Shown piece after piece: positions 18,815 to 63,301 of a stretch of DNA of 64,000 bases. The DNA is from Octopus vulgaris (lineage: Eukaryota): assembly GCA_951406725.2 (NCBI GenBank), contig OX597815.1, positions 70,804,001 through 70,868,000 of the forward strand, read 5' to 3'. Under the pieces are notes generated by a model. The model ran no database searches. It had not been told where the DNA came from and worked only from the letters and a program-made list of their open reading frames with translations. Within the stretch, counting starts at the first letter, position 1; the number at the start of each line of letters is the position of its first letter. The position numbers were made by a program, and so were the translations under genes.

Positions 18815-19160
18815 ATATTATTAAGTAAGAAAATAGAGAGATTTAATGGATATAAATTAATTTATTAATTAATCAGCATTTCCTACAATTGTTTCAATTT
18901 ACACTCGTTACAAAGTACAAAGCATATATCTCAACTGATGTTAATTAATTGTTAATTAGTCAATGTTAATTATTGATTAATAAATGTTAATTAATTGATA
19001 AATTTATATCCATTAAATCTCTCCATTTTCTCAACAATAATATTTGATATTTATATTTTTATTGAAGAGATATATTTTAATAATATAATATATCAAACCA
19101 GTGTAACTTGGATGGAACCATCCCTATAAGAAGCTTTATATCCTCATAATGACTGAATAT
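18815..19160. repeat. Fold-back element with unique 3' extension, Penelope inverted-pLTR-like
   Basis: GAAAATAGAGAGATTTAATGGATATAAATT inverted at about 19000-19030; minus-strand GAAACAATTGTA at 18884-18895. Confidence 0.6.
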
Positions 19161-19614
19161 ATATATGTATGTATACATATACGATGAAATGTGCGTATAT
19201 ATGCATTTATATATACACACACACACGCATATATACATATACATGCACACCCATACCTACATATTTACATATATACCCAGTACATTATGAGGAAATGATG
19301 ATCATAGACATTGACAATGAAGAGGATATGTGCATGTATTAATAATGTTACATATATGCTTGATATATATATATATACGAACCTATAGATATCTATATTT
19401 GCATTTACATACTTGTGTGTGCGTTTGAGTGCATATATATGTATGTACGTGTGTATGTGTGTGAGTGCATGTGTGTGTGTAAACACACACACACACACAC
19501 ACACATACATATATATGTCACACACACTCACACAAATGTACAACTGAAATTACGTATATATACGCCGTGTATGACTGCAAGAGTTTGCACTGAGACATAC
19601 GTATATACATATTA

Positions 19615-22080
19615 CAGTGGAGAACACAATTTTCGTTGAGTTAGATCTGACACTTGTTTTCGACAAAATTTTGACTTCTGAATCTAAAAAAATGCCCCAG
19701 TGTTTCTGTATCATGTCAAATTTTTGAGCTACAGGATACCCTGAATTTATCTCAAAACCTTTAAAATATTGCGCCTAACAGATCTGTTCTTCTTTCATAG
19801 AATGTTTTAAAAATTTACATACAACGGAAAAAATATAATATTGTTTGACTGTTAAGTTTGAACAAATTTATTTTGTTAATTGAGAGGATATTTTTACTGT
19901 GAGTCAAATTTTGTGCAAATAGTTAAGATAAAAATTTGCGCTCATAGCTTTTCCTGGAGTGTTTAATTTACGTACAGTTGCACTTCAATCTCCTACAATA
20001 GTCAGTCATCGTATTTACGTCCCATCTACCCTGATAGCATTCCTCTATGACCTTCATGTGCAGGGGTGGGAATATAATTTTCGTTATGTCAACAAGTGGC
20101 TCATGTAGAAAGTTGGAATCACTAGGTTTGAGGTCAGGTCTAGGAGGTCAATTCCTCTCCACCCAATGCTTCTCTCGAGCTCTGCGGTCAAAATGAACTG
20201 AAAGCAGGGATATTTGGGATATCCGTCTAGATGACCAAGAAGGAAGCATACCATTTTAAGGTCAATACAGACAATCTAATTGTATTTGTGATATTGCAAC
20301 AACTCAATGACTCTATATCTCCACTTTATTCACAAAGACAAACTGAATGCCCAGTTGGGACTGCCTCATCTAAATTGCCATTGTGAAGGATGACATAATC
20401 TAAGCTCCGCTTTGAGCTATTGATGAAAAGTGGCCATTCGGTTGAGTTGTAGATTAGAACTTCCAGTTCCTCCAGTGAACCCTGCATGTTATGGCAATAC
20501 ACAAACCTACTGTCACTTCGAAAGTACTATAGAAATGCACTTTCCTTGGACCAAAAGTAGGATAGTTTTGTTCCTTTTTTAAGCAAGTTTTTCTCATTCA
20601 GTCTTGGTGCTAGGAATTCTGAAGCCATTTTTGATCATTCCGTATCTCGTGCAAAATCATTCAACTCGAGCTAATTTAATCCCTTGCGAAGTGGGTCATC
20701 TTTAATTTCAAAATCTGCATCATTGTTGTCACTGAGTTCTTCATCATGATCCACATCTTTAAGATGGTACTGGGATTTCAGCTGAATGAGGTACTGGATA
20801 TATAGCTGATGCTAGGCAAGAATACACGATTTTACATTTGTTTTCTTGTTATATCCTGAAGTTTTCACTAAACAAAAGTAACAGTCCGTGCAATGACCTT
20901 TTTCTCTTGCCAAGTCATAAGTGTACTAAATTCCAACTTTGATCCACATCGGAAAACTTTCGACACCCTGCTTGCACATCTTGTGAGGGGCCCAAACCTT
21001 GTTTTGATCACCAACTTTTAATAAGACTGGGCAAGATAACATATCTTTACAAATGCGCCGATGTTTAACTGGAAATGGTGAAAATGCCCTTTAACTGGGA
21101 ATGGTGAAATTGCCACAGATATAACAAAAGGAATCAGGGCTGTTTCGGCACTTACGATGAGAAGTAGCAGAAGAAGACATGATCTGAAAGAAAGGAAATA
21201 AACATTGGAATAAAAATTAAGTTGAACAGGAAAAACGAAAACAAAATCAAATGAAAAAATTACATAAGGCCTGTTAACCCATTGCATACAAACTTTTATC
21301 TATTATTTGCAGAATACTATAATAATCAGCCATATAGAGCAACCGCTGAGACCTGTAACTGCTATCCCAGATAAATTTGTGTATTCTATATAAATGTGTA
21401 TGGATATGCATCCATAAATGAACATACTTTCATCTACATTCATAAAAATACACATTACATACATATACATTCACACAAATACTGCATAAGAAAAAAGAAC
21501 AGGGTAGAAATTTAGGCCTCGGACCTCAGGAGAAAATGCCTCCACAATTCAAATCAACAATTCATTCACTTCAAAACCTTGCCATCTCTCCTCCACTGCA
21601 CAAATCTCTTCTCTGGCCTCCTAACATCGAATCCTCTGCTCAAAAGTGTTTGTTACTCCCATATCTTGGCCATATTCATGAAATTTCATGCATCTTAGCA
21701 CCAAGCCTCCTTCCAGCTTCCATCTTGAAACAGCAACTTGACTCTTAAGGATTGAAGATCAGCTGAGGCATCTGATTGGTCAATAATCGGGACTTACTTT
21801 TTGGAGGGAGATTTGAACCTGACTATAGTCTGCCATCTTTTGAAACTAAATCACCAGATCGGAAAAATTCTCACTCCTTATCAACAAAGTTATAAATGCA
21901 ATCAGCTGACCAAACAATACAATTGTGCTTATTCAGAAAGTAAGCTGTAGTAAAAAAACTCTCCAAAACTTGACGTGATAGAAAACTGACTGTAGTTTTG
22001 AAATCAGCAGGCCAATTTTCAGTAGAATCAAGTGAAATATTGAACTCAACGGAAATTATATTTAAAATTGTTCCCCAGTG
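19615..22080 (-). mobile_element. Chapaev3-like (CMC group) DNA transposon, internally deleted
   Basis: Termini CA(G/C)TGG.GAACA, 3-bp TSD TTA at both ends; minus-strand KVGDQNKVWAPHKMCKQ, HCTDCYFCLVKTSGYN, EWPLFINSSKRSL..ILHNG, KIIFPPLHMK. Confidence 0.8.
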
Positions 22081-24008
22081 TTATTTACTGCTGCAATGTT
22101 ATGTCAGTTCATAACAATTGATGCAGTCTGAGCAAAACAGCAAACGCAGCCGTATAAAATGTTGTTTATTTGCACTTGGACCAAATCTTTTGTAAAGGAG
22201 TGTAAAATATGTCTGATTTGATTTTCACTGTTTCATCTTCGGGGAGAGAAATCAAAAAGTGCTGAAACCGTCCAGTATATTCATATATATATATTTTCAA
22301 AATATTCTTATTACATACGCACACAATTACTTGCACACTATCGTAGAAAACGCATACACAGATATATGTGCAAATATAAATGAACTGGGAATGATTATTA
22401 TTGAAAATGGTCAGAACGGATTCTTCTCTTAGGTCGATTATTATTTTATCTCAGAAATAATCAACCTAAACGTAAAAATGTGACCAAATTTAAAACTGCA
22501 ATGCCTCGGTTTAACATAGATAACTTAAGTTTTGGCTATTATTGGTTTACATATGATCTAAGCGCCACTAGGAAGTAGTTTTTCTAAGGTATATTTTAGG
22601 GCATCATGTCCCACCCGAGTAAGAAGTTGCTGTTTACTGAGATGTAATAAAGTGTTGGTGGCTCGTCTGGTATTTCTTGGAGTAATATTTTCGCGTACCG
22701 TTTGAATGTTATTGGCTCTTTTTTCTTTGATTTCTTTCTGAATAAATTCTAAATGAAAAAGAATCTGTTTAGGTAAAACAGTTGTATCGCAATGTCATGT
22801 GATATGAGGGTGATTTTTGTTGGGGAATATAGTTCTGGAGTCCAGCTTTAGTTGATTTATGAACTTGATATCAACCGTATTTGAATAGCGCTGATGGAAT
22901 ATTTTCGATATTGTATAAATAGTGGAGTGCTCACTGAATCGTTAGGAAGAATAAAATTTGAGTTTTTTGAGACCATCTCAATAATCAATGCTTGTCATAC
23001 TGTTTTTCTGAGCCATCTTTGGTGTGCTTCAATTCTTACAATGTTTTGTTATGTGTAGGAAGACTATAATGGATAGCAATAATCAGTTTAAAAAATACAG
23101 CAATAATAATTCCATCTTTGGCACTGCATCTTCATTGTAACGAAGGTAGCTGATAATCTGCTCTGTTACAATAAAAGTACTTGATATTTTATCAACCTCA
23201 GACGGCTGAAGAAGGTAACTTGACATTTACGGGATTTGAACTTCAAACGTAAATGGTCGTAAATATTGTAAAGCATGTATTTTGGTACAACCGTTTTTGA
23301 TCACCCGATCACCCAAGCATCCTGGCGAAAACGATAAAGATCTAATTAACGAATAAATCTCTACGAGGTTGGTCATCTGCTAGATATAGCAGCGATATCT
23401 TTCTAAAATTACTCACTACAATCTTAAGAAGAGGATACGTTTCTTAATACACTACACTATTCCTGGAAAATAAAACGGATTAGTCATGGATGGAACACCA
23501 TTTATCACGTGTTTGTTCGGTCAGAGCTGAATTGGGATTAAATAACAACGGAGATAAATTCTAAAGCTATTATTAGAATATTTACCAAGGTACAGTGATA
23601 TAAATATGTAAAGGTTGTATGCATTTGATTAAAACATCATCCACAGAATAATAAAATATTGATCGTTTGGTGAAGTGGAAAGCACAGCCAACCAATAGAA
23701 ATCTGCTAAAAATGACTACCACTGTTTAATAACAGCCAACATTCCACTTTCTCTTATTTTCAATCTACTGAAACAATACTAGGTCCCATTGCAAAATGTT
23801 CAAAATCAGCTAAGCATTGTTTTTGCTTAAAAATCTATTTAAAAAGTCACGTCTCGAGGTGAAGCATATATAAAACATTTCATATACTCATTACAAAACC
23901 TATCTTTACTTTCCTGAAATACCTTTTAAATATCTGTTACTTATCTACTCGCAACTTCTAATGCAAACAGGAAAAATAGGACTCAAAACAGGAGTATATG
24001 TATATTTT

Positions 24009-24146
24009 TATTAATAGTTAGCGGAAAGAACAGATTGACTCAAGTTCCGAGAGTTTAATGTGCGTTGACACTTATCAAAATGATAAGTGCCAACGCACGA
24101 AACTCTCGACCTTAAGTCGCTCTGTTGCTTCTGCTAAATATTAATA
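24009..24146. repeat. Short fold-back with degenerate hammerhead-like core
   Basis: Arms of about 68 bp, apex near 24079; (T/A)TGATAA-GTGC caac GCAC-GAAAC. Confidence 0.75.
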
Positions 24147-24149
24147 TAC

Positions 24150-24180
<31 letters not shown>

Positions 24181-24198
24181 TGTATGTATGTATGTATG

Positions 24199-24271
<73 letters not shown>

Positions 24272-24360
24272 TAAATATCCTGGAAACAGTTGTAAGACCT
24301 TCTATCTATAAATGTTCTAAAATCTACACTGCCTTGGTTTTTTATCTCATTACGAAAAAC

Positions 24361-24412
<52 letters not shown>

Positions 24413-24524
24413 ATATATATATATATTTACATTTTGCCCCATACTTAATGTAAATATATTGTGATTGGCAAGCTTTACTGCTGCACTCACCCAGAGATAT
24501 CTCCCACGGCTGTATATATGTATA

Positions 24525-24780
24525 CCTTTTATCTTTTACGTGTTTCAGTCATTGAACAGCGACCATACTGAGGCAACGTCTTGAAGGGTTTAGTTGGAAA
24601 ATAATCAACTCAAGTACATTTTTTTTCAAGTCTAGTATCTCTTCTGTCGGCCTGTTTTGCTGAACCACTAAATTTCGGGGACGTAAACAAACAAACAAAC
24701 AAACAAACACCGACTGCAATCAGTGTAAAGGAAGAAACATAAACGCGGGCACATGCATGCATATAGGGGAACAAATACAA
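24525..24780 (-). mobile_element. SINE family C, 3' part
   Basis: TTTTATCTTTTAC.TGTTTCAGTCATT..GGGGACGTAAACA matches 40315-40500. Confidence 0.7.
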
Positions 24781-24797
24781 GCGCACACACATGTTTA

Positions 24798-25464
24798 CGA
24801 GGGGAAGTAAAAAATTATCCGCAATTTTGCCATAACATATATGTTTATTATTGCCACACTGCCTTCTGTGGATGCGGGCTAATAGTTGGTAATATCGTGG
24901 TCACGTGAGCGAAGTTTGAGTCTGATCGCGCCATTTTCCTCTCTGGCTTTACAGTGTAAGCATGGCTGTTCCACTAGCAATTTGTACCAAAGAAGAACAC
25001 AGAGCAGTGATCCGAGACAGGGTAATGGTGAACCGGTTCACAATTACCATCTCTCGAGCTTGCTGAATCTTCTCGTCAGTGGCAGAGGTTGACGAATTTC
25101 CTGCTCCCTCTTCGCGCGTCACGCTTATCCGGTGACTGTTAAACTTCTCGATCCGCTCATACACACTTCTATGCGGTAGTGCTGTCCCCGTATTGTGCTA
25201 AAAGCCTCCGGTAAATTTCAGTACCTGACACACCTTTCGACCATAGAAGTCGGACCACTGCTCTTTGTTCTTCTTTGGTGCACATTGTTAGTGGAGCGGC
25301 CATGCTTACATTGTAAAGCCACATAGTAAAATGGTGCGATCAGGCTCAAATTTCGATCACGTGACCTCAGTAGTACCGACTATAAGCACGCATACGCAGA
25401 AGGCAGTGTGACAATAATAAAGATATGTTATGGCGAAAGTGCGGATAATTTTTGAATTCCTCTT

Positions 25465-25465
<1 letters not shown>
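24798..25465. mobile_element. Mariner-derived MITE built from two inverted 5' ends
   Basis: ~215-bp imperfect arms starting TA|CGAGGGG; both carry the transposase start (MAVPLAICTKEEHRAVIR / MAAPLTMCTKEEQRAVVRLLWSKGVSGTEIYRRL); minus arm continues into the HTH region. Confidence 0.85.
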
Positions 25466-25502
<37 letters not shown>

Positions 25503-25512
25503 CACACACACT

Positions 25513-25584
<72 letters not shown>

Positions 25585-25587
25585 CAT

Positions 25588-25620
<33 letters not shown>

Positions 25621-26955
25621 AGATAAATGAAACGAGAGAATAGATATTTATTCCATTAAGGATTTATAAACTTTCGACAGAACGAAAATCTCTTTTGGTC
25701 TGAAAAACTCAAAGGTTGACCTGGGACTCGACATGAACCAATATACCTTGTTGACATGACAGTCGTTCTACCATTGTACTAAAACATTTCTTCGAATTTC
25801 TCTATACAATTTATATACTTTATTAGAGACGTCAGAGTTAGGCACGTTTTCTCATCAAGAATCTTGCATACTAAATACAACGAAATACTGTAATGATTTT
25901 TGCGCAAATCTAGGTCGAAACTGCCGTAACTTTGTCGCGAGTTTTGTTCAAAACATTATAAATTTATTTCTAGCAGAATACGAGAAGTTTCCTGAAGAGT
26001 AACATATACAGCAAACACTGTCAACGCCATCACAAACACCACCATGAACAAGTCAAGAAGCTAGTTCCAATATAAACTACACTACACCTCATAAAAATAT
26101 GTCTCCCATCTTGATGTAAAATGCGCTTCCCACAAAAGATTCATACTGTAAAATAAAAAATAAAATTCTGATGTTGCAATTTTGAGTGAATAAATGAGTT
26201 GAATAAACGACTTTTAAATATTTCAAAGTTAACCGACATTAATTAATATTTGTATGTTCATTAAATCCCTTTTCGTAATTTATAAAACTAATTAATGCAT
26301 TAAAATTTTGTTTTCTTTAACTTTTTAGCTGTTCTGAGACTTTGATGTTTTGATGATGTAGTCTTTATATATTTCATGTATATATCATATCATATATATC
26401 TTGTTGGTTCTAATAGTTCATATAATATCATATACATCTTGTTAGTTTTAATAGTTCATAGATATATTATGCGCACTATGTTAATTTTTATAGTTCCTAT
26501 ATATATATATATATATATTTATATAAATAAGGATACGATCGTTAATTTAATTATCGATCTTATCAAGTGGCCGGCATGGGAATAAACACTTCAAAGGTTG
26601 CTAGTTCATCTTGTCCTTTTGTCTTCTCTTCTGGTGCTGTATGAACATTTAATGTAGTTTTAGAGTAAAGTTTTGGCTGCTATTTCCGGCGTGGAGGTAT
26701 CTCTTAGATACCCTAAATTATAATTTATATATATATATATATATACATACACAAATATATATATATATTATATAAATATTTTTAGTTGTTATAGTTTGTA
26801 TGCATGTGTGTGTATACGTTTATATGTATATATGTATGTGTGTGTGTATACGTATATATATATATATATATATATAGATAGATATATTCATGTATGTATA
26901 TATATGTACTTCTATATATATCTGTGTATATATACATATATATCTACATATACTC

Positions 26956-27004
<49 letters not shown>

Positions 27005-27194
27005 AACATATGCATATACATATACATAAATATATATGTATACATACACACACACACATATATAGATGTATGTGTATATATTTATACATCTATATAAAAT
27101 ATTACATACACAGTGCTAGTTTTATATTGACATATATAATATTATATAGACTTCATTAATTTTTAGAGATCCTATATATTCCGGAGTGGGTCTC

Positions 27195-27368
27195 TTGTTA
27201 TGAGCGCAAGTGTTGGAGTGCTGTGAAGAAGCATGGTTACCAGCCATGTGGTCTCAGGTTCAGTGCTACTGCGCTGTACCTCGGGCAAGTGTCTTCTACT
27301 ATAACTCGGAGTTGACCAAAGCCTTGTGAGTGGATTTGGGAAGAGAAACTGAAAGAAGCTTGTCGTAT
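27195..27368 (+). mobile_element. SINE family C, 5' half ending in (TA)n
   Basis: CCATGTGGTCTCAGGTTCAGT..GGGCAAGTGTCTTCTACTATA..AAAGCCTTGTGAGTGGATTTGG. Confidence 0.75.
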
Positions 27369-27609
27369 ATATATATATATATATATTATTTGTAACCGCT
27401 AGAAAGTTACAAGTGTCTTAAGGACTGGGAATCACGAAAATGTCGGCTGTTTAGTCAATTTTGCAACCTTCTGCCAATTAAAAATACTACATACACACAC
27501 ATATACATACATACACACATACATACATACATACATACATACATACATACATACATACATACATACATACATACATACACGCAGGCACACATCTCACTCT
27601 CTCTCGCTC

Positions 27610-27648
<39 letters not shown>

Positions 27649-27836: not shown

Positions 27837-27899
<63 letters not shown>

Positions 27900-29694: not shown

Positions 29695-30204
<510 letters not shown>

Positions 30205-30844: not shown

Positions 30845-30902
30845 ATATATGAAAAAACAAGTCAAGATAGAAAATGCTAAAATCATTTTATAAAGAACAT
30901 TT

Positions 30903-30940
30903 CAGTACCGGTTTCAGTCATTTTGAGACCTTTTCAACTG
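30903..30940 (-). ncRNA. Minimal type I hammerhead ribozyme, U3-A8 variant (left arm of fold-back)
   Basis: Reverse complement CAG-TTGAAAA-GGTC tcaaaat GACT-GAAAC-CG-GTA-CTG. Confidence 0.65.
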
Positions 30941-30982
30941 TAACGATTTTTAATTTTTCTAAATTTAATTATTTAATCGTTA

Positions 30983-31020
30983 CAGTTGAAAAGGTCTCAA
31001 CATGACTGAAACCGGTACTG
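30983..31020 (+). ncRNA. Minimal type I hammerhead ribozyme, U3-A8 variant (right arm of fold-back)
   Basis: CAG-TTGAAAA-GGTC tcaacat GACT-GAAAC-CG-GTA-CTG; stem I CAG/CTG, palindromic stem III ACCGGT, GUA triplet. Confidence 0.65.
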
Positions 31021-31098
31021 AAATGTTCTTGACTTGTTTTTTCATATATATCAACTCGTGTGTTCCTTTTCATCCTTATATATATATATATATATATA

Positions 31099-31381
31099 CA
31101 GTGGGGGAAATAAATATTCGTATATGTCAAAATTCTTTATTTATTTAATTTTTAATGAACATAAATGGGACATACCAATACTATATTTGCATACACATGC
31201 ATAAACTAAGAATATGCAAAAGAAACTAATAAATTACAGTAACTAATTTATTAGTTTCTTTTGCATATTCTTAATTTATAAATGTGTATGCAAATATAGT
31301 ATTGGTATATCCCATTTATGTTCATTAGAAATTAATTAAATAAAGAATTTTGACATGTACGAATATTTATTTTCCCCACTG
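31099..31381. mobile_element. Tc1-type palindromic MITE
   Basis: TA|CAGTGGGGGAAATAAATATTCG ... CGAATATTTATTTTCCCCACTG|TA; arms of about 140 bp meet with almost no spacer. Confidence 0.9.
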
Positions 31382-31409
31382 TATATGCATACATACATAC
31401 ATACATACA

Positions 31410-31853: not shown

Positions 31854-31886
<33 letters not shown>

Positions 31887-32460
31887 TGCTGTGTCTAGGG
31901 AAAGTCATTATACCAATATTATTAACACACGCACTGGTTTAATTCCACTCCTTTATTATTAGTTAATTGGTTAAGTACCCAGCTAATTAATCGATTGTTT
32001 GTTTAAATTGGTTAAACAGTAAGTCATTTGTTTAGTTTTTGTTTGTCAAAAGCAAAACAAATGACAGCGTGTGTTAATAATATTGGCAGAATGATTCTCC
32101 CTAGATACAACAACGGCATACATACATAAATACATACATACATATATACATACATACATACATACATACATACATACATACATACATACATGCATACATA
32201 CATACATAATACATACATAAATACATACAGACATGCATGCATGCATACATACATACATACATAATACATACATGCATACATGCATGCATACATACATACA
32301 TATATACAAACATACATACATATATATACGTATATACATATACATACATATACATTTAGATATGCATTATATACATATAGAAATATGTGTATACATGTAT
32401 ATATATATGTCTGTATGTATGTATGTATATATATATATACATACATACACACACACACAA

Positions 32461-32520: not shown

Positions 32521-33110
32521 ACGGCAATAAGAAAATGGCGGGGATCAATATTCATCAACATTTAGACATATGTCTATTTATTTATTTTTTAAAGAAACAA
32601 TTATAACAATATACGTACATGTATAACATAATATACTTCACATATATAATATATAAAAATATAAAAATACCAGTAATTATTAATATATATAATGTAGAAC
32701 ATATATTCTACTTTCTATTTTCGACATTATATATTTTAGTAATTATTGGTATTGTTATATTTCATATATTATATATGTAAAGCATAATATATTACATATG
32801 TAAAGCATAATATGTATGTATAATAATATACATAATATATGTATATTGTTATAATTGTTTCTTTAAAAAATATATAGACATAATATAACGTCTAAAAGTT
32901 GATGAACACCGCCTCTTGATCTCCTACATTCTCTTATTGCCGTGTAAATTAACAACTTTTTACCCTCACCCATTTAATACTGTCAGTAGTGTAATTGCCA
33001 TGCAATGAAAAACCACATCTGTATTAATAATTGGGTATTCTACTAGCAGTATATTGGATAAATATTATCCCTTAGTTGGTTGGATTCACAACCTCTAACT
33101 CTCTTGGAAT
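32521..33110. repeat. Large AT-rich fold-back (32521-32943) plus unique extension
   Basis: ACGGCAATAAGAAAATG..CATCAAC.TTTAGAC is inverted at about 32890-32943; the extension matches 30650-30750. Confidence 0.75.
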
Positions 33111-33597: not shown

Positions 33598-34437
33598 TTG
33601 ACTGAAGATTGAAGGCTTCGAATGTCCCATCCGTGTTTTTTGTATCGTCTTTTAAATGTTTTGCGTTCCTGTCCCAGTTTGTATTTTTTTACATATACAT
33701 ATATATAGCGGCATCCGTACCCCTTTTGGTCTAATATGTAAGTACATATTCTTATCTTGGTACGACTCTATAACACTGTCTCTCTTCCCCCTCTCCTACA
33801 TTTCTCTGCCTTTCACACTTCGCACTCCTCTTTGATCGACTCTTTCTCTCACTCTCTCTCTCTCTTCTCCTCCTCCTTTGTTCCTTGTTCCCTTCTTTCT
33901 CTCTTCATCTGTCCCTCTTTTCCTCTCTCTTCTCACACGTGACTAGCCGACCGATTGCTAGCCCTTTCGTGGTCAGCAGCCGTTGCGGCAAGACACAAAT
34001 TTTTTTCTCTCTCTAGCCCTAAGGCTTTTTTCTAACGCCAGCTCAAAAATTTACTCGTCCTGTCGAAAAGACGCTTGTCTGTGATGTCCTGTTTTTGTTG
34101 TTATTATTATTATCATTATTGTTTTTACGTATTTTTGTATTCTTATTCGTGTTATCATTATTGTTTTTACGTATTTTTGTATTTTTATTCGTGTAACATC
34201 GTCCTGTTTTCCGTCCTTGTTTTGTATACATTCGAGGTTTTCTTCCAAGGAATCTAATGCGCTTGGCTTAGATTTTCCTTTGGGGCTGGCCAGATCGGAG
34301 CAATCTCAAGATTAATCAGCCGAAATTGCGAAGATGATCCGGTTCTTGACTGAAGATTGAAGGCTTCGAATGTCCCGTCCGTGTTTTTTGTATCGTCTTC
34401 TAAATATTTTGCGTTCCTGTCCCAGTTTGCATTTTTT

Positions 34438-34443
<6 letters not shown>
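33598..34443 (+). mobile_element. Penelope-like tandem pLTR (partial plus full copy, 748-bp period)
   Basis: 33598-33694 is repeated at 34346-34443; related to copies at 1385 and 29750; both repeats end in TA. Confidence 0.6.
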
Positions 34444-34469
<26 letters not shown>

Positions 34470-34472
<3 letters not shown>

Positions 34473-36290
34473 ATAATAAATATTAGGGAATAAATCCAAA
34501 TTTACAGGGAAAAAATCAGATTTAGGATTAAATCCAATTTTATAGTAAAATATTATAAAATATTATTAGAGACAAAACCACTATTTTGCAAAACAAACAA
34601 GGAAAGACTTAATCAATACATAAAATTTTAATAAATAGTCAAAAAAACCCCGCCACTACAATTGTTTCTTGTCTTGATCGACAATCTTCAGGTGGACTTC
34701 CAATCTAAAATATCAATATTTTAAAATATAAAAATAATAATTTTAAAATAATTAAAGTATTAATGAAAAAATATAAATATATAATCCATATATAACCTAT
34801 ATATAATCCATATATAATCAATATATAAACAATATATAAACTAAAATAAACCTATCAACAATTAAATATAAAATATAAAATATAAAATATAAAACAAAAC
34901 AAAAAAATAATAATAATATAATAATAAACTATATATACACCCATACACATATAACTAATTATATATAACCATATCTAACTACATACACTAAATCACACAC
35001 CTATATATATATCCCTATACATACACATAAAAACGTCTAGGCAACTATAAATAAATAAAATAGCTAAATACTTCAACACAATACTTATTCATACTCCCAC
35101 ACACACACATACAACCCACATTCCCGCTCTAGAAACGGACATCACTTAAAATTATGAACGGAGAAATGGAATAAATGGAATTAAAAATTATATTCACTTG
35201 GTAAAACGAACACTACTTAAAAATTATGAATGAAACAATGCAATAAAACAACAGACATCGCAAATAGACACAAATTACTACGAATTCCTTAACAAACCTA
35301 CCATGATAAACCAAAACTCATAAAAACATATAATGATAAAATCTCCCTTTACTAAACTCTATAACATACCTATATAGCAATCCCCCTAACCTAAACATGC
35401 ACACACAAATACACACACGTAAACCACACACCCACGACATATACAAATACCCACACCACTTACACATACCTATACATACATATAAACCTCAACATATACT
35501 CCAAAAACCCACTCAACCCCACACAGACAAATAAACACATACATCCCCAAACCTAAATAGCAAACCCATAAACACATTCACACACAAATATACATACGTA
35601 AAACACACACCATATACATATACATACTCACCAAACTCGACATATACAACAATATTAACACACCCACATTCATACAGATAAACAAACTACACAACCAAAA
35701 TACGCCCACACTCACACACAATCCCACATACATAAACACTCCAAATAAAAACAACATTATTACACATAATACGATATATAAAATACATCGTAAGTAACCA
35801 GAATATCAAAAATAATAATATGACATAAGGAGAAATAATATACATACTTTCAAGTCAGTTTCAAATTATGAAGTGAAATTAAATTCTAATCCGTTAAAAA
35901 CATCAAACCAAATTACGTTACCATAGGAACATAACTTATGTATAAAAAGAATACGCGCTATGGAAGCAAACCTCACTTAAAATTATGAATGGAGAAATAG
36001 AATAAATGGAATTAAAAATTATATACACGCGGTAAACCAACATTAATTTAAAAAAATTATGAATGGATTCTTTTATAAAACTACCATGATAAGCTAAAAC
36101 TCACAAAAACATAAATGATAAAACCTCCCTTTACTAAACACTATAACATACTTATATAGCAATCCCTTTAACCTATACATTCACACACAAATACACACAC
36201 GTAAACCACACACCCATAACAAATACAAACACCCACCCCACTCACACACACCCACAAGTACATATAAGCCTCAACATATACACCAAACAA
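34470..36290 (-). mobile_element. Non-coding, strongly strand-biased element carrying the hammerhead (Penelope-like 3' region)
   Basis: Starts at a (TA)n tract; plus strand A/C-rich with very little G; 35142-35520 duplicated from 35973. Confidence 0.5.
34653..34695 (-). ncRNA. Canonical minimal type I hammerhead ribozyme
   Basis: Reverse complement CCAC-CTGAAGA-TTGTC gatcaa GACAA-GAAAC-AATT-GTA-GTGG; all core residues present and all three stems pair. Confidence 0.88.
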
Positions 36291-37869: not shown

Positions 37870-38640
37870 TTCATCTAACCCTCCTTCTCTCTCCTCGCTT
37901 CCTCTCACATCTACTTCCTCTCACCAACCTCACCTCTCTTGCTCTGGCACCTACTTCCTCTCGTCAATCCTACCCACCTTCTCCCTTCCCCCACTCCCTT
38001 CATCGTCACCCATCCCTCATTACCCGACTCCTACACATTCCAAACCTACCATACCTATACATCCCATCCCACCCCACCTCATCCATTAAACGCCACCCTT
38101 GCTTCCCCCAATCTCGCCCCCACACTCCAACATCACCACATCCCACCCCACCACACCACCACACACCGCCATACCACACCACATCACATCACCCCGCACA
38201 CACTAGCACTAGCCACTTCCCAGCACCCACACCAACCCGCATACACTAGCATTGACCACTTCCCAGCACCTACACCATCATCCACACACCTACATATGCA
38301 CACACACACATCAATGTCACCAGCCCCCTTTCACACGCACATACACGCTCTCACATACACACGCACGCGCACCTTCGTTGTGGGGTCACCACTACTTTAT
38401 TATCTTCCCTTCTTCTTAGCTCTCCTGTGTGACCCCTCTGTCCGGTATTCGCCATGATAGATCGCTAGCCCTAAACCTTTTTCTATTTCCTCTCCCTGTT
38501 TATTTCTGTGTTCCTTTCTGTCGAAGGGTGTAGGCTCGAAACGTAAAAGACTTTCTCACTTCCCGAGCGTTAAACTAATACATTTGTTTGTTGTTTACAC
38601 ACCCGTCTTCGTATTTTTTGTTTTCTTGTAAATTTTCACT
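37870..38640 (+). mobile_element. Penelope-like 3' region / pLTR with degenerate hammerhead at 38514-38550
   Basis: C/A-rich low-complexity run, then CTGTCGAA-GGGT gtag GCTC-GAAACGTA; ends in TA. Confidence 0.6.
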
Positions 38641-38919
38641 ATATATATAAGCATATAAGTTAGAACGTATCTATGTACATTCATAGACACATTTATATAA
38701 ACCCTGCCTTGATTGATATTCTAAATTAAGTTCTGAAATATTCCATGCCTGAATTCTGTTGTATTTCAAACGCATATCCTGAAACAAATTTTAACTATGA
38801 TTACATTATTGTACCACTCAGATAAGGAGAGGTCTATTTCTTGGTAAGCAAGAAACGAAAGGACACATTATACATAATTTATCATTGTTTTTATTCATAC
38901 GAACATTCTTTTAATTATA

Positions 38920-48871: not shown

Positions 48872-48875
<4 letters not shown>

Positions 48876-49123
48876 TGTTACATTACTCAGTCAAGATAAA
48901 ACTCTGAGTTTCAGATGCCGAAGTGGAAATCACAACACCATCTTTCGGTTATCTGGCTATTTTAAAATAGCCAGATAACCGAAGAGATGTTTGTGATTTC
49001 ACTCGCATCTGAAACTCAGAGTTTTATCTGACTACGAGTAATGTAACATATTGTATAGATAAATTTCCTCTATTTACATAATATTGAGGTCTCTTTCTTT
49101 CTTTTGTTATCTTACCGTTTTAT

Positions 49124-49125
<2 letters not shown>
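48872..49125. repeat. Fold-back (48872-49052) with a degenerate hammerhead in each arm, plus extension
   Basis: AGATAA-CCGAAGA-GATG..CATC-T-GAAAC-TCAGA-GTT-TTATCT at 48973-49029; (TA)n on both sides. Confidence 0.75.
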
Positions 49126-54649: not shown

Positions 54650-54690
<41 letters not shown>

Positions 54691-55699
54691 TTTACAAACA
54701 ACATTTTTATGCCTCTCTCCTCCCCTTTAAACTATGTCATATCACCGTCGCATGCTTGCGCCTCCATATTGATCTGTCTCGTAATCTGTCTCGTAATCTT
54801 GTCTGCAGTTCGCACCGACACTATCTTGCCTGTCTGCATGCATAAAAGAATGTCTCTCCTCTCTCCTCTCATCTCTCCCTCCCTATATCTGCATGTGTAA
54901 CCCGTCCCCACTAGTCTGTCTCACTTACTCTCTTTGTTTCTTTCTCTCCCATAAACCTTACATTATAAGCGTTAGTGTCACTTTTACTTTTGTGTTCTTC
55001 ATATTTCAACCTTTTTCCTCGGCTATTTTAGGAATGTCAAGATATTCTTCTATACAGAAGGAATAATTCGCACCCATACGCACCACATACGCACCCACAC
55101 ACATTCATACACAGTCATACGCACTCGCACTAACCCGTACACGCTTGCATATAACTACACACATATGCAAGACCTATACACAAGAACCAACGAGGAGGCT
55201 TCTATACTCGACCTGCTAGAAAGAGCAACAAAATCTACCTCAAATCACACCTTAAGGGAAGAATACATTGAAGCATTTGGTCCCTGAGACGCAAAAATAT
55301 TTCATAGGTCTTCTCGGTCAGTGTTAATTACATCAGTAACAACAGCAGCAATAACAAAAACAACAACAGCAACAGCAGCAGTAACAGCAGCAACAACAAC
55401 AACAACATCATTAACGACAATAGCGGAAACAATTCACAATCATAAACCCACATATAGACGTATATGTCCGACTAAAAAAATATAGTGGTCAAAGTTCGAA
55501 TGCCTTTGGTTATAGGTCTACTTAGTCAAGGCTGATCGGGGTTAAACAACAGCATCATCCTCATCAGCATGACCATCAGCAGCAGCAACAACAGCAAGCA
55601 GCAACACAACGCAACAACAAAAACTGCTCATACTTATACATGTTATGCTTAATACACTACCACACGCAACTATACATAGTTATAAAAGATCTTACATAG

Positions 55700-55845
55700 C
55701 ACCATTCACAAGCATTCACAAGCATCCGCGAGTATTCACTACCATTCACAAGCATTCATTGTAATTTACAAAGGTTCTCAAACATTCACTATCATTCACA
55801 AGCGTTCACAAGCATTCGCTACCATTCACAAATATTCACACCTAT
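55700..55845. repeat. Minisatellite with 10-11-bp unit (CATTCACAAG)
   Basis: About a dozen degenerate copies visible. Confidence 0.8.
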
Positions 55846-55964
55846 ACATAACGCTATATAGTCGTAATTATTTTTTCATACTACTTTGTCAATATTTCTC
55901 TTCTTTACATATATGTGTCCAACCACTCAGGTTCCGCACTAATGGCCATACTCTATTTTCCTTT

Positions 55965-56500
55965 TGTAAAGGTGTGTGGCAAGGTAGTTAAAGTGTTATA
56001 TTCACGAACGCATTGTCGTGGTTTCGATTCTCGGATCGGGTAATGCGTTGTGTTTTTGAGCAAACCATTTCATTTCACATTGCTTTGCAATCACTTCTAC
56101 GTCTGACGTATGGCACACCGTGCACCTGTACAGGCAATGTCGATTTGATGTAAGGAGTGAGCTAATGTACAGCACATACATTTGATCAATGTTTGGCGGG
56201 AAAAAAGGCGGCGAGATAGCAGAAACGTTAGCACACCGGACGAAATGCTTAGCGGTATTTCGTCTGCCGTTACGTTCTGAGTTCAAATTCCGCCGAGGTC
56301 GACTTTGCCTTTCATCCTTTCGGGGTCGATAAATTAAGTACCAGTTACGCACTGGGGTCGATATAATCGACTTAATCCCCTTGTCTGTCCTTGTTTGTCC
56401 CCTCTGTGTTTAGCCCGTTGTGGGCAGTAAAGAAATAACAAACATTTGATCAATGTAAACCAATCTTTTGCGCAGGCTGTTCAGCAAGAAATTGCGAAAA
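55965..56500 (+). mobile_element. tRNA-derived SINE interrupted by a family B SINE (56193-56441)
   Basis: Host B box GTTTCGATTCT; 15-bp TSD ACATTTGATCAATGT at 56178-56192 and 56442-56456. Confidence 0.85.
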
Positions 56501-56714
56501 TGTCATATGTCATCAACAAAAGAGATCGCCATTTCTCTCCTTCAATGTTTTCTTACTGGAATTTCTTTCTTAGCACACATCTTTCCAGCCAGTTGCCGAC
56601 TTGCAATAGTTTTAAACAGAATGCAAACAGCATCCCAATCGGTTTTAGAAAATCTGTGACGGTTTTAGAAAATCTATGACGGTATAACCTGTATCTACAC
56701 ATATTCATAAATAA

Positions 56715-56965
56715 ACATAATAAATGCGCCCTTTTAAAGCCTAGCCAGGCTCATGGGCCCGGTTTCAATGGCGTATGTGTTCCCCAGCTGGACGGGACAC
56801 CAGTCCATCGCAGCATTACTCATTTTTGCCAGCTGAATGGACTGGAGCAATGTGAAATGAAGGGTTTTTGCTCAAGAACACAACGCATCGCCCGGTCCAG
56901 GAATCGAAACCACAATCTTACGATCATGATGCTGACACCCTAACCACTAAGCCACGCGCCTCCAC
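56715..56965 (-). mobile_element. Full-length SINE family A
   Basis: Minus-strand head GGAGGCGCGTGGCTTAGTGGTTAGGGTG; B box GTTTCGATTCC. Confidence 0.9.
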
Positions 56966-57290
56966 ACACATATTCATACTATATGTATATTCTATTCTTT
57001 CTTTTTTGAAATTTTACATACGCAAATACATACATACAGACACACATGCGACGGGCTTTCATCCGTTCTCTAATTGCTAAATTCATCGACAAAGCATTAG
57101 TCGGCCTGGAAAAATTGTACACGACACTTGTCCAAAGGGATACGCACTGGGACTGAACAGGAAATTAAGTGGTTGCAAAACGAACTTCTCGGACCATACA
57201 ACCATGCCTGTGACTATGTATGTATACAGATATATACATACTTAACATGGCTACACATATACCTATATAAACACGCCATATGTACACGTA

Positions 57291-57331
<41 letters not shown>

Positions 57332-57517
57332 CACACATGTCCACCCACTTTCATCGACGGTTCTCAAAATATGTCTTATAAAGGAGTAATGGTTCTCCGA
57401 GGCAATGTTGACTGTCCAATGAAAACCTTAGCTTCATCTTTATAGTAACTGAACCATTGTTAGCAATGTGGTCAGTTACTGAACGTACGGAAAATATCAC
57501 TGGGAATCTGTGTAGAC

Positions 57518-58174
57518 CAGAGGTCGACAAAGTGGGTAATATTGAACCCTGCAGGTCTATGTGGGTATCCAAGCGTCCATAAACATCTGAAATGATTTTG
57601 AACATTTGAATGCTGACTTATTAGCAAATTGAATCTGGAAGAGTGTAGGTAATTTAAATCCCAAACTCATTAGTTTACAGCCAAATATCGAATCAAAAGT
57701 AGCACGCACCAAACACCTTTATCATATTAAATATTTTGGCTATATTAATTTAACATCACTGAATTTTTATTGTTCTTTATCAATTTTGTTAAATATTTTC
57801 ATAACATTTAAAAAAATATTTTTTATTAAAAAAAGCGGTAATGACTCAAAAGACGAAATCATTATTTTTAAATCAAATTTTTTAAAATAAAAAATGTGCA
57901 ATCCACAAGCGGATAGTTAGTATAAGGGAGATACTAAATTTTCTTCATTTTTGGTGGGATTAAAATTTTGAATTTGAAATTAAGGAATAAGGAAACAGAT
58001 GTACAAAATATAATATTCAAATTGTTTTTTTGTTGCTTGCTTACTACGGAAGTCTTAACATTTTTAATCTTAGATAATCATATTTAAATTTCATTTTAGA
58101 AATTTACATGATGGTGGTCGATAAGTTATCAATGATTCCATGAAGGGGCCAATGGAATAGGTTTACCGACCTTG
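57518..58174. mobile_element. Degenerate hAT-type MITE
   Basis: Imperfect TIRs CAGAGGTCGACAAA / TTTACCGACCTTG; flanks GTGTAGAC / GTTAAGAC (6 of 8 match). Confidence 0.5.
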
Positions 58175-58397
58175 GTTAAGACCCTGATCTCTTAGTTCAC
58201 GTATTACACGATGTCTCCACTGCAAATTTTTGTCAGGTTAACATACATCCATAGCCAGTTGCAATAGACGCTGAATCGAAAATAATATCTTGAAATCTTA
58301 TATATTCTATAAATTGCTTCTTTAATTAGATTTTTTCTCGATCATTTCTCTCCAGAAATGTATCTTTCTAGAATTCCTTCCTGCATGTGAATAAATA

Positions 58398-58531
<134 letters not shown>

Positions 58532-58958
58532 ACAAGTTATTTATCTACTTAACTACCGATCAGTCTCTGCTTCTCTCTCTCTTTCTACCTACCTACAACC
58601 TACCTACCACCTAACTACCACCTACCTACCTACCTACCTACCTACCTACCTACCTACCTACCTACCTACCTACCTACCTACCTATCTACCTACCTGCCTA
58701 TTTACTAATCCTACTTACCTACCTATCCACCTACCAGCCTGCCTGCCTGCCTGTCTGTCTGCCTGTCCGCCTGCCTGTCTGTCTGCCTATCTGTCTGCCT
58801 ATCTATCTGTCTATTTGCGCCCGTTTGTCTCTTTCTTTCTTTCGATCTCTTTCTCTCACTCTCTCTCTAAATATCTATCTGTCTGTCTCTGATTGCATCT
58901 GTCTTTCTCCCTTTTCCGTCTCTTTCTCTCCATTTATGTGTCTGTCTGGCTCTCTGTC

Positions 58959-59054
<96 letters not shown>

Positions 59055-59529
59055 TGTATCTATATTTATATATATATATTTGTTTTTAACCATCTCGACA
59101 TTGATGCTGATAACTATTATTTTTGATTGATTTTAAGATACCTAACTGAAAGCTCATCCTAACACACCACTGTATGTTTTGTAGTATTTTTCCCAACTCT
59201 CAGCACCTTGAGTTCAATTTCCGAAGTCAGCTTTGCCTTTTATCCTTTCGATATCGATAAATAAAGTACCAATCCAAGCGCTGAATTGGCGGAACTGTAA
59301 GAGCATCGGATCAGACACCTTGTGGGATTTGTTCAGAGTCTTTGCTTTCTGAGATCAAACCATGTCATTCCTTTTGTGCAAACATTGGGCCAAGTTTGAT
59401 GTTTAAAGACACCTTCCTCCTCTCTTCCCCATTAGTCTCGAAGGCCCTGTGAGGGTTCATGGGCATTGTCTTCCTCTCTAACTAATAGATACAAAAATAA
59501 AACCATAAACAGTTGATGACAGTTGATGC

Positions 59530-61295
59530 AGGCGGAAGCATGACTGTGCAATTAAGAACGCCGCTTTGCAGGTACTTATTTTCGGATTCATTCCCACTGC
59601 ACGATATCTTGGGCACATGTCCTCTACTCTAACTTCGGGTTGACCAATATTTTGTGAATGAGTTTCGTAGACGGAAACTGTGTGGAAACCTGTTGTATAT
59701 ATGTGTGTGCGCGGGTGTACGTGTGTTTGTGTCTATGTCTGTCTTTTCCCACCGTTTGACAAGGTGTTTGTTTGTGTAGGTCCCCGTAAATTAGTGATCC
59801 AGCAAAAGAGTTGGATAGAATAAGGTCCAAACTTAGCCTAAGTCGTCGGATCGTTTCATTCAACTAAAAGCCTCAGCGTTGCCACATTCAAATGATTGAA
59901 ACGAGTAGAAGTTAAAAGATGATACGTCATCTAGAAGGGTAATGTCAACTGCGGGGTCCTCAGTGGGAAGCATGAATAATTTTGGCATCAGAGAGCATTG
60001 GAAAGTATGAAAGAGCAAGTATCGAGATATATTCCGAAACATTTCTGTGTAAAACGTTATCCAGTACGATAGAATAACCAAGGCTTTAGTATATTTCCTT
60101 GAAAGACACTTGTTCTTTCGGAGATATTTGTACTATATCGGCAGGCTGCCCGCCACGCAGGTATTGCTTGATGGCTGTCTGACTGCTATCAAATAATATT
60201 TGCTTCAAATTTTGGCACAAGGCCAGTAATTTCGGGGGAGAGAGAAGGGGGGGGGGAGTCGATTAAATGACCCCAGTGTTCAGCTGGTACTTATTTAATC
60301 GACCTTGAAAAGATGGAAGGCGAAGTCGACTTCGATGGAATTCGAACTTAGAACTTAAAACGGGCGAAATGCCGCTAAGCATTATTCCCGGCATGCTAAC
60401 GGTTCTGCCAATTTGCTGCCATCAAATAATATCAACGTTTATAGTCAATGTGGTTCACCAGTATCCAACGACATCTTTTATCTTTCACTTGTTTCAGTCT
60501 TCGATTGCGGTCATGCTGGGGCACCGCCTCAAATGGAATAGTCGAACAAATCAACCCCCAGTATTTATTTTTTTAAAGTCTGGCACTAATTCGAATGTTA
60601 ACTTTTACCAGACCTCTAAGTTACGGGGCATCAACACACCAACACCGGTTGTCAAGCGATGACTGCGGAATTACAAACCTAGACACAAAGACACGCAAAC
60701 ACATACATACTCTTACACACACACATATATACACCACAAACTTCCACACAGTTTCCATCTACCAGCTTCGCTCACAAAGCATTAGTTCACCCATGGCTAC
60801 AGTAGAAGGTACTTGCGCAGTGGGACTGAACCGGAAACTATGTGCTTGTAAACGAGCTTCTTAACCACACAGCCTTACTTGTGCCTATGTCTGCGTTCAT
60901 GAAGGCAATTTATATAAGGTAGCTAATGATACATACGTACGATCACTAAGCAGTGGGATCACACAAACATACAGGAAGGTGGTCCTTCAAAACTTTAATA
61001 ATATTAACCATGAAGCCAAAGTGTTTGACTAACATTGGGGATAGGCTAGAGACTCTGGCAAAAAAGAATCCTTACAACGATCAAAGATCATAGTCTTAGG
61101 ACTCACTGCACCTGTTAATCCTTTCCCAGAACGCCAGTTCGTCGCAGGGTTACCCATTTACAGCTGAGTGAGCCGGAGGAACGTGGAATGGTGTGTTTAA
61201 ACATAAAAACACAATGCCTTCCCAATAGGGGAATAGAAACCATTATCTTGTGATTGGGAGTGTAACACCCCTAACCATGAGGCTACGTGCCTTCA
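59530..61295. mobile_element. Cluster of SINEs: C (+) 59530-59920, B (-) 60195-60420, C (-) 60470-60890, A (-) 61120-61295
   Basis: Each matches the family motifs described above. Confidence 0.75.
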
Positions 61296-61329
61296 CAAAA
61301 TGTCATCTGATAACGTTGCCAATATATCT

Positions 61330-61620
61330 TATACTGGCATTGAAGACTTTTGAAGAAGTTTGGTAGCGACACAGAGTAGCACATCAAAACATACTAGTCG
61401 TTGGTGTCTAAAATCTGTTGAAGACCTACAAAATGCCAATCGCATTTGGCACTTCTAAATTCTTGATTATGTTCAGCACATCCTTTGAAATTTCTCAAGA
61501 CTGCGAGAAGATAGGTGGAGCGATGGTGGAGGTGGTGGTGGTGTTGTAGAGTTAGTTGATGTTGATGTCTTTCTGCAATTCCTCGACTGGCATGAAAGAG
61601 TGAAACTGATAACTTTTCTT
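61330..61620 (-). pseudogene. Very degenerate RTE-like RT fragment
   Basis: EHNQEFRSAKCDWHFVGLQQILD resembles EEQAGFRxxRSCxDxIFxLRQILE; followed by FSKVFN. Confidence 0.4.
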
Positions 61621-61653
61621 GTAGACATATACCAGGTTCTAAGTTACCGGGCG

Positions 61654-61719
<66 letters not shown>

Positions 61720-61922
61720 TGCGTACATGCACACACATGCACATACACAATCGTACAATACATAACCACGTGCACAGAACGCGTAGAGATCAATTAATCA
61801 ATTAATTAGTATATATTGTACATACATGCACAAACGCATGTGTGTGTATACATCTGCGCGCGCAGACACATACATACACACACATATATACATACGTCTC
61901 TCTCTCTCTCTATATATATATA

Positions 61923-62834
61923 TAGGGTATTTCCATAAATAATGCTGTATTTTCAAGTTCATGAACTAAAATTCGGAGGGTGCGGGATAAACTACCTGCA
62001 TCAACTTGCTATAAAAGCAGATAGTAATTTTACTTTGTCCTTATTCTTAGTGCAAGTTTCGAAGAGTGCAGTTCGATTTTAACAGTTATTTTTTCAAAGC
62101 TTTAATGGAAGTGGCAAAGGAGCATGTTCAGCATATTTTGCTTTATGAGTTCAAAAAAGGCAACAACGTAACGGAAAGTGCGAAGAATATTAATGCAGTA
62201 TATGGAGATCGAAAAATAAGCGTTAGCCAGTGTCAACGGTTGTTCCAGAAATTCCGAGCCGGAAAATATAGCGTAGAAGATGAGCCTCGTCCCGGAAGAT
62301 CTGTAGGGCTCAACGAGAACGTTCTGCAAATCTTGGTGGAACAAAATTCCATCATAACTGTTGAGGAAGTAGCAGAGAAGCTTGGATATGGTCATTAAAC
62401 AAGTCATTCAAGTCAGCACTAGAAGAAAAATGACTATCTTTGATTTCAAGGCGAAAGGCGTTTTTTCATCAGGATAATGCTCGGCCACATACAGTGAGGA
62501 TGACATTCCAAAGGCTGGAGCAGTTTGAATGGGAAACGATGCCCCACCCACCATATTCGCCGGATATTGTCCCATCTGATTATCATTTATTTCGCAGTTT
62601 TCAAAATAATTTGGACAGAAAATATATGAATTTTGTAGACGAGGTCAGAATAGTACTGGAAGAGTATTTTTCGTCACGACAAGTGAATTTTGGAAGAGGG
62701 GCTTTGCAAGTCTACCAGATAGATGGAAGAGTATTGTAGAGAATGAAGGAGAGTATATTTTAGATTAAAAAGAACTTTATCTTGACTTTGAAAAATAAAA
62801 GTATAAAAACCGCATTATTTATGGAACGACCCAA
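61923..62834 (+). mobile_element. Mariner (DD34D) transposon, internally deleted
   Basis: TIRs GGGT..TTCCATAAATAATGC with TA flanks; MEVAKEHVQHILLYEFKKG..EDEPRPGR; HQDNARPH with 34 aa to the D of YSPDIVPSDYHLF; first catalytic D region missing. Confidence 0.93.
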
Positions 62835-62844
62835 TATATATAAA

Positions 62845-63301
62845 ATTAAATTAGGCAACGGTTTAGCAATGTATCACCAAAAAGGAAAACTATAATATGA
62901 CTGAGGGTATTAGAACACCTACAATGCTAGAAATAGGAGCTAAAGTGCTTTGATGCTGCAGTCAATGCACACAATTGTATACATACAGACTGACAGCGAC
63001 TATAAACGGCCGAAAATAGCAGTCGTGATGTCCCTATACCATCGACAGTTTCGGCTTTAACAACGGGAACCTCTTCAGTAGGGTCGGCACAACTCGCCAG
63101 ATTCCGGACAAGATTGCCACCGGTATATATGTCTACATCAAAGAAATTTATGCATGATTTAGCGAATCGCTAATGTATATACAAATTATTAAATTAGGCA
63201 ACGGTTTAGCAATGTGTTACCAAAAAGGAAAACTATAACTGTCATTAAATATGACTAAAAGTATTAGAACCCCTACAATGCTAGAAATAAGAGCTAAAGT
63301 G
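62845..63301 (-). mobile_element. Direct-repeat-bounded non-coding element with a hammerhead core at 63038-63084
   Basis: 62845-62947 repeated at 63188-63301 (period about 343 bp); minus strand CTGAAGA-GGTT..AGCC-GAAAC-T-GTC; TA tracts at both ends. Confidence 0.65.

Follow-up and report, generated by a model that had tools for sequence, protein, structure and literature searches.

A 64-kb window of the Octopus vulgaris genome (64,000 nucleotides of a 2.8-Gb assembly; contig OX597815.1, positions 70,804,001 to 70,868,000), which has a GC content of 36% and is rich in microsatellites, carries seven loci at which an initial annotation noticed whole or partial type I hammerhead ribozyme cores beside TA tracts. 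We designate these loci and their families by position in the window (18.8, 24.0, 30.9, 34.6, 38.5, 48.9 and 63.0 kb). They are the ends of five coding Penelope-like element (PLE) families together with two short non-coding elements (Table 1). The initial annotation had described all of them as non-coding mini-elements, a description that holds for the 63.0 and 24.0 kb loci, whereas the other five are truncated ends of coding PLEs. Sequence motifs suggest that the 34.6, 48.9 and 18.8 kb families are Hydra-type PLEs and that the 30.9 and 38.5 kb families are Neptune-type, with these clade labels resting on motifs rather than on a reverse transcriptase (RT) tree.

Hammerhead motifs and TA flanks at seven loci

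A strict type I descriptor that admits either a C3-G8 or a U3-A8 core identifies 4 motifs in the window, compared to an average of 0.13 over 60 dinucleotide shuffles of the same sequence made block by block. A relaxed descriptor, which was loosened only once core variants had been seen, adds motifs at 38518 (+) and 48979 (+), for a total of 6 versus 0.13 in shuffles. In the 24.0 kb copy of the window the 5′ strand of stem I is missing, since that spot is the centre of its fold-back, and the 18.8 kb copy retains only the 3′ half of the motif; whole motifs for both were recovered from their family copies. The stem III palindromes quoted in the initial annotation are present as described.

All seven loci belong to dispersed families, with 644-3730 first-look candidates each, and the family-majority sequences keep the conserved core and three stems of a type I hammerhead. 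For the 63.0 and 24.0 kb families, 82% and 86.5% of cells, respectively, are paired in the named structures, versus 14-43% when the structures are slid. Stem covariation in these two families, by contrast with the preserved cores and stems, does not rise above that of shuffles: 50-474 of 500 shuffles reach the values observed for the 63.0 kb family, and for the 24.0 kb family one of five measures is reached by 5 of 500 shuffles and the others by 47-397. Weak covariation is what decay of the copies would predict. Among the 150 of 305 matches listed from an Rfam scan of the window, hammerheads are absent and only microsatellite-driven microRNA hits appear.

The targeting of TA repeats proposed in the initial annotation was borne out. 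A 3′ end was scored as TA-flanked if (TA)4 occurs ≤25 nucleotides away, with duplicates and unmapped loci dropped. Pooled over the seven families, 130 of 191 mapped copies are flanked in this manner, relative to a flanking background of 6.9%, and the three young families reach 96-100%, the old ones 33-67%. The overall shapes of the loci match their earlier description in part: fold-backs occur at 18.8, 24.0, 30.9 and 48.9 kb, and a partial tandem of 1.35 units at 63.0 kb, whereas the 34.6 and 38.5 kb loci are plain 5′-truncated ends in the window.

Table 1. Hammerhead-bearing elements of the window and their parts. Asterisks mark motifs found with the strict descriptor; a dot in the strand column denotes a fold-back. 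The last column gives family copies with (TA)4 at the 3′ end.
Feature	Position	Strand	Remarks	TA-flanked
18.8 kb: old Hydra-like PLE end, head-to-head fold-back	18816..19133	.	tail-less arm on -, tail-bearing arm on +	6/18
24.0 kb: ~135-nt element, fold-back	23961..24146	.	centre is the fixed 5′ end; tail arm on -	12/29
30.9 kb: Neptune-type PLE fold-back	30851..31076	.	U3-A8 hammerheads; tail on + arm	14/14
30.9 kb hammerhead*	30906-30937	-
30.9 kb hammerhead*	30986-31017	+
34.6 kb: 5′-truncated PLE end, 1.83 kb	34463..36289	-	98.7% to full copy L171	23/24
34.6 kb minimal type I hammerhead*	34657..34691	-	C3-G8 core, unpaired base after A9, palindromic stem III
34.6 kb GT-AG intron, 1143 nt	34705..35847	-	kept here; precisely absent from spliced genomic copies
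34.6 kb short exon 1	35848..35869	-	5′ boundary about 35869-35874, where spliced genomic copies begin
38.5 kb: Neptune-like PLE end, 5′-truncated	37870..38644	+		12/18
38.5 kb hammerhead	38518-38545	+	A6U core
48.9 kb: head-to-head fold-back PLE end	48872..49125	.	75-nt tail; young family	50/52
48.9 kb hammerhead	48979-49023	+	U4C core, extra U before G12
63.0 kb: retrozyme-like element	62835..63301	-	1.35 units of a 353-nt circularly permuted monomer	13/36
63.0 kb hammerhead*	63037-63078	-	canonical type

Coding families and non-coding elements

The link to Penelope elements drawn in the initial annotation is substantiated for five families, in each of which other genomic copies connect an RT or GIY-YIG endonuclease (EN) frame with the hammerhead end in question. 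In the young 34.6 kb family, the window copy comprises a promoter region, exon 1, a retained intron, the hammerhead, two 3′ end sites and (TA)n. [quoted passage not shown] Genome-wide, exact motif matches number 1253 at the core and 401 at -171. The 5′ boundary of exon 1 would correspond to the transcription start of this family. Its protein carries SDKT (DKT rather than DKG) and KWK where the Hydra clade has RWK. Translations of the 34.6 and 48.9 kb families both include a CxCx5C linker plus a GIY-YIG domain at the C terminus, with CxxC and CxH; a Pfam search of the two proteins gave no GIY-YIG match, and the assignment is read from the translations.

A long Asn-rich insert between RT and EN (L171:5194-7203) resembles the inserts of rotifer PLEs (PMC3846280; here and below, statements on published work refer to the parts of the cited reports available to us). 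Contigs from four sequencing runs, whose RNA status is guessed, cover 15-30 of the 30 bins between RT and hammerhead, with the splice site outside this coverage. Contigs of two runs of similarly guessed status exhibit very deep coverage of one piece of the RT frame (L171:6687-6779) and a back-joint with 25 extra letters, a signal that points to a short derivative, tandem or circular, about 118 nucleotides in length.

The 48.9 kb family is likewise young, and includes a 2.53-kb tandem unit (L206) encoding an exact RWK, DKT (SDKT) and CxCx5C, as well as palindromes of 2.8-3 kb (L205 and L214). Counts of exact 19-mers are 4397 for stems II-III, 4720 for the core (two alleles), 1490 for -74 and 1304 for -434. 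The core is U4C in 3871 cases, canonical (TG) in 849 and CA in 108. A canonical-core subfamily probably exists, because CpG decay by itself does not account for 849 TG versus 108 CA. Short copies are identical to long ones base for base. In a sample of 29 single-arm copies, 25 reach the core and 17 of these end ≤33 nucleotides upstream of it, which constitutes a sharp 5′ stop like that of the 34.6 kb family that is reached without splicing. A two-armed array at G000:C1:57208884-57222548 has four 2.58-kb units on the - strand facing two on the + strand.

Among the remaining coding families, the 18.8 kb copy has a tail-less - arm with the 3′ half of stem II, GAAA and stem III (18884-18895), and a tail-bearing + arm that begins right past the cleavage site; the whole motif of this family has a C3-G8 core and a stem II of ~75 nucleotides. 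Decayed Hydra-like RT/EN remnants lie 1.3 kb upstream in one copy (L208), and the Hydra assignment is based on 45% tblastn identity to the 34.6 kb protein. Several copies of this family (L132-L149) fold back or start about 50 nucleotides upstream of the core. The 30.9 kb family, with 2262 exact core-motif matches, carries RT (DKG), a Cx4CxxC linker and GIY-YIG upstream of the hammerhead (L172/L173), with the last domain matching PF01541 at E 7e-5 in L173. About 8 of 30 arms (L357-L386), as judged by eye, start near 120 nucleotides upstream of the core, and this cluster is a possible transcription start. For the 38.5 kb family, a decayed GIY-YIG-like EN frame is located 0.5 kb upstream in L209 and L210; it has 27% identity to the 30.9 kb protein and no Pfam match at E 0.01. 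The Neptune label for this family is tentative.

The non-coding 63.0 kb element has a hammerhead with an extended stem I, and its copies are old (about 75-90% to the majority sequence). Copies extend to 1.85 units, and of 37 distinct places, 2 contain two cores (1.85 and 1.78 units), while two full units are present in none. No joined ORF was found at the sampled copies. It is likely that this family is a non-LTR (long terminal repeat) retrozyme copied from circular or multimeric RNA. A hard stop at the upstream cleavage site was considered, given that eight copies end just short of it, but this explanation was rejected because two loci cross two sites and length decay suffices to account for the end positions.

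The motif of the 24.0 kb element has a U3-A8 core, stems II and III of 4 base-pairs and a stem I of 3 base-pairs. A survey of 48 loci, of which 26 had been sampled through the tail only, yielded no candidate parent: copies share no sequence farther than about 9 nucleotides upstream of the core, with the exception of one local tandem array, and no ORF is joined to it. Beyond that one array, the circularly permuted tandem copies of a retrozyme were not seen in these loci, where the 5′ end is fixed. The array (L213:2380-3100), which is single in the genome by motif search, has units of 122-135 nucleotides plus two 46-nucleotide units that end at the cleavage site. Formation of the fixed 5′ end by upstream hammerhead cleavage was ruled out, as evident by 4 junction-motif matches versus 7 for the control, and of these four, two fall in the single tandem locus and two are unrelated. 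PLE fragments next to 63.0 and 24.0 kb copies (L093, L104, L054, L049 and L052) were dismissed as neighbouring insertions.

Fold-back geometry, spliced copies and a proposed route of insertion

The orientation of paired copies was counted over the first 100 matches listed for each family motif on contig C1. Among the matches listed, opposite-strand pairs of the 34.6 kb family are head-to-head in 28 cases and tail-to-tail in 0, and those of the 48.9 kb family in 26 and 1. The spacing of the 34.6 kb pairs is bimodal, with 18 at 28-70 nucleotides, 10 at 1.3-14.6 kb and an empty gap between. In 16 of the 18 short pairs, one arm ends near +136 and the other near +225 from the core, and the outer ends of 48.9 kb copies fall at two sites located 75 nucleotides apart. 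Family identity, TA flanks, the two fixed outer ends and head-to-head polarity are observed features. The arms of a fold-back also share alleles: at one diagnostic site in 39 fold-backs there are 28 CC, 8 TT and 0 CT combinations, changes common to both arms occur at 13 times the between-copy rate, and the stem III allele is the same in both arms of 16 of 16 pairs.

Many copies of the 34.6 kb family have lost the intron precisely. Exact motifs count 575 spliced arms versus 440 unspliced in the genome, with 0 for the controls. The hammerhead is preceded by exon-1 sequence, and not by the intron end, in 18 of 18 short pairs; the exon piece of ~20 nucleotides found there sits 1.14 kb away in the window copy. 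Singletons, picked mostly for absence of the -171 motif, are spliced in 16 of 20 cases (3 unspliced, 1 unclear). On the donor side, GT follows the exon piece in both promoter copies of L171, on the acceptor side a pyrimidine tract and AG precede the hammerhead segment, and the junction types observed, three in number, match those predicted from the GT donors of the two promoter copies. Among the first 30 spliced matches, 29 carry no element sequence beyond exon 1, and the remaining arm continues for 95 nucleotides, up to a second splice junction. Both arms are unspliced in all 10 long pairs, and mixed pairs number 0 of 28 examined. No spliced class was encountered in 20 loci of the 48.9 kb family. 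As with the allele sharing of arms, the exact GT-AG junctions and the sharp 5′-end stop are observations; a strong-stop class would make up about two thirds of arms in two young families. Hence the template was spliced RNA of the sense strand, and its copies end at the start of exon 1. The spliced copies would therefore argue against an antisense-template account of PLE intron retention.

We propose, with a probability of roughly 0.7, that the window holds hammerhead-bearing ends of five PLE families plus two non-coding elements, and that the fold-backs come from two-ended copying of one sense RNA at a cut TA repeat, beginning at two fixed sites downstream of the hammerhead. The Penelope enzyme would cut the TA repeat, and a single RNA would serve both target strands for the priming of complementary DNA (cDNA) synthesis, which would begin at the tail site for one strand and 75-90 nucleotides inside it for the other. 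The two cDNA ends would then be joined head to head at microhomologies, yielding variable centres. We give slightly better than even odds to the broader proposition that PLE insertion in general is primed from both ends on one sense RNA, and that either terminal repeat can be used. Where the 5′ repeat of the transcript is primed, spliced strong-stop palindromes would result, as short run-off products whose ends mark the transcription start and which preserve a record of splicing; where the 3′ repeat is primed, long copies would result that retain the intron and so restore it. The RNA template would be uncut at the hammerhead, with cleavage being weak or later. For another PLE examined in vitro, the enzyme nicks and extends each of the two strands, reverse transcription initiates at a pair of internal sites by which the tail is defined, and the template is mainly RNA that has not been cleaved (PMC11167929). 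U4C lowers hammerhead activity in vitro (PMC3088659), and the U4C majority in the 48.9 kb family fits with a cut that is dispensable or delayed.

Several points weigh against this proposal. Arms of the 24.0 kb family are concordant at one site and discordant at another. Arm-to-arm gene conversion can mimic shared alleles, and later deletion at a palindrome centre can mimic arm asymmetry. Exact-motif counts vary with motif conservation, and the spliced copies may have been amplified from a few masters. No spliced class was seen in 30 arms of the 30.9 kb family, where the 5′-end cluster is weak. The model leaves unexplained how the 3′ intron escapes splicing, and the transcript start and splicing that it invokes are deduced from genomic copies.

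The short copies might instead constitute separate non-autonomous families, founded by one or a few masters that were spliced or truncated, carried an internal promoter and spread on their own, as the initial annotation implied. Non-autonomous PLE derivatives are known (PMC8557442), the 63.0 kb element is non-coding, and the 5′ end of the 24.0 kb element is fixed, with the 48 loci surveyed holding no parent of it. We nevertheless regard this explanation as rather unlikely. At least five junction-by-allele combinations exist in the 34.6 kb family, with the same alleles recurring in its unspliced long copies, and this variety therefore points to repeated origin from the coding element; the base-for-base identity of short and long 48.9 kb copies also speaks against separate families. 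Distinctly unlikely, in our assessment, is snap-back or self-priming, wherein a single cDNA would fold on a short palindrome near its end and copy itself as the second arm. Such priming was put forward in an earlier study that favoured an antisense template and left the question open (PMC3846280), and it would accommodate the private variants common to both arms and the short microhomologies and natural palindromes used at fold-back centres. A copied arm cannot exceed the first, yet in 39 fold-backs of the 48.9 kb family (counted once 12 rows that were duplicates or TA-only had been removed) the longer arm is the tail-less one in 15 and the tail-bearing one in 11, and the two are equal in 13, with a further 2 unclear, and the tail-less arm extends further 5′ in 12 of 35 classified fold-backs of the 24.0 kb family. 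Since neither arm regularly contains the other, simple snap-back is contradicted, unless centres were deleted later, and its antisense-template form does not predict sense GT-AG junctions.

It is highly improbable that the fold-backs are DNA transposons resembling miniature inverted-repeat transposable elements (MITEs) or assembly artefacts and that the hammerheads are chance matches in AT-rich DNA. True MITE-like palindromes do occur close by (24800-25463 and 31098-31383) and covariation within families is not significant, but the excess of motifs over shuffles, the variable centres, the one-sided tails and the RT/EN linkage are at odds with this reading, which the linkage and the exact intron loss at splice junctions already refute.

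If double-ended priming on one sense RNA is correct, a single mechanism would explain the tail, head-to-head inversion and intron retention, and genomes such as this one would serve as maps of PLE transcription starts. Young, precisely spliced sense copies that reside beside unspliced long ones make inverted ends and intron retention testable. The core variants that occur naturally here (A6U, and U4C, which is spreading in a young family) permit one to ask whether PLE hammerheads must cut.

Neighbouring features and comparison with known systems

Other features of the window include a dispersed repeat ending in (TA)n (34180-34440, 29829-30079 and 33598-33707) that lies tail to tail with the 34.6 kb element and in which a loose scan found no hammerhead. 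The fold-backs at 24800-25463 and 31098-31383 have terminal inverted repeats in TA tracts and lack hammerheads, and they resemble mariner/Tc1-type MITEs. Imperfect palindromes in microsatellite DNA are present at 32522-32942 and 31886-32113, and an RT fragment at 10899-11552 (+; PF00078, E 3e-17). A 467-amino-acid frame at 16198-17598 (-) has no Pfam match and resembles a hAT-type transposase.

The Hydra-type families share with published Hydra-clade PLEs the DKT motif, the CxCx5C linker and a GIY-YIG domain at the C terminus, as well as a hammerhead in the pLTR, (TA)n targets, an inverted 5′ copy and a one-sided tail (PMC8557442). The RWK of that clade is exact in the 48.9 kb family and reads KWK in the 34.6 kb family. 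Hydra-clade PLEs are generally <3 kb, compared to 2.53 kb for the 48.9 kb family and 6.83 kb for the 34.6 kb family, and the latter unit is unlike them in having a 3′ region of 4 kb, a promoter present twice and a linker rich in Asn. The tails described here measure 75-90 nucleotides, versus 30-40 in that clade. Spliced run-off copies are absent from the available part of that account, which calls PLE intron retention unexplained (PMC8557442); some of the families described here may be listed in its files S1-S2. The DKG, Cx2-5CxxC linker and C-terminal GIY-YIG of Neptune-clade PLEs are all found in the 30.9 kb family.

[quoted passage not shown] Its genomic copies keep the intron, whereas in the 34.6 kb family spliced copies outnumber unspliced ones at the junction. 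Minimal PLE hammerheads (Cervera and de la Pena 2014, PMC4209133) have the same short palindromic stem III, base after A9 and U3-A8 variant, as well as opposite-strand pairs 100-700 bp apart; differences are the U4C majority in a young family, A6U and the 75-nucleotide stem II. U4C is already known from a viroid (PMC3088659).

The 63.0 kb element compares well with metazoan non-LTR retrozymes, whose non-coding monomers of 150-400 nucleotides encompass its 353-nucleotide monomer, and which have a canonical type I hammerhead and more-than-unit permuted copies, with mussel units of 350-390 bp (PMC7229834; bioRxiv 10.64898/2026.07.22.740005). It is unlike them in being old, in the lack of an array of two full units among the copies seen and in its dispersal with PLE-type ends. 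The listings of a literature search, mostly outside subscription journals, showed no report of spliced or intronless PLE copies, PLE twin priming or cephalopod retrozymes. Minimal hammerheads, U3-A8 cores, opposite-strand pairs, tails, inverted copies and TA bias have been published already (PMC4209133; PMC8557442). The features described here are of known kinds, and the insertion product is a variant that bears on an open mechanism.

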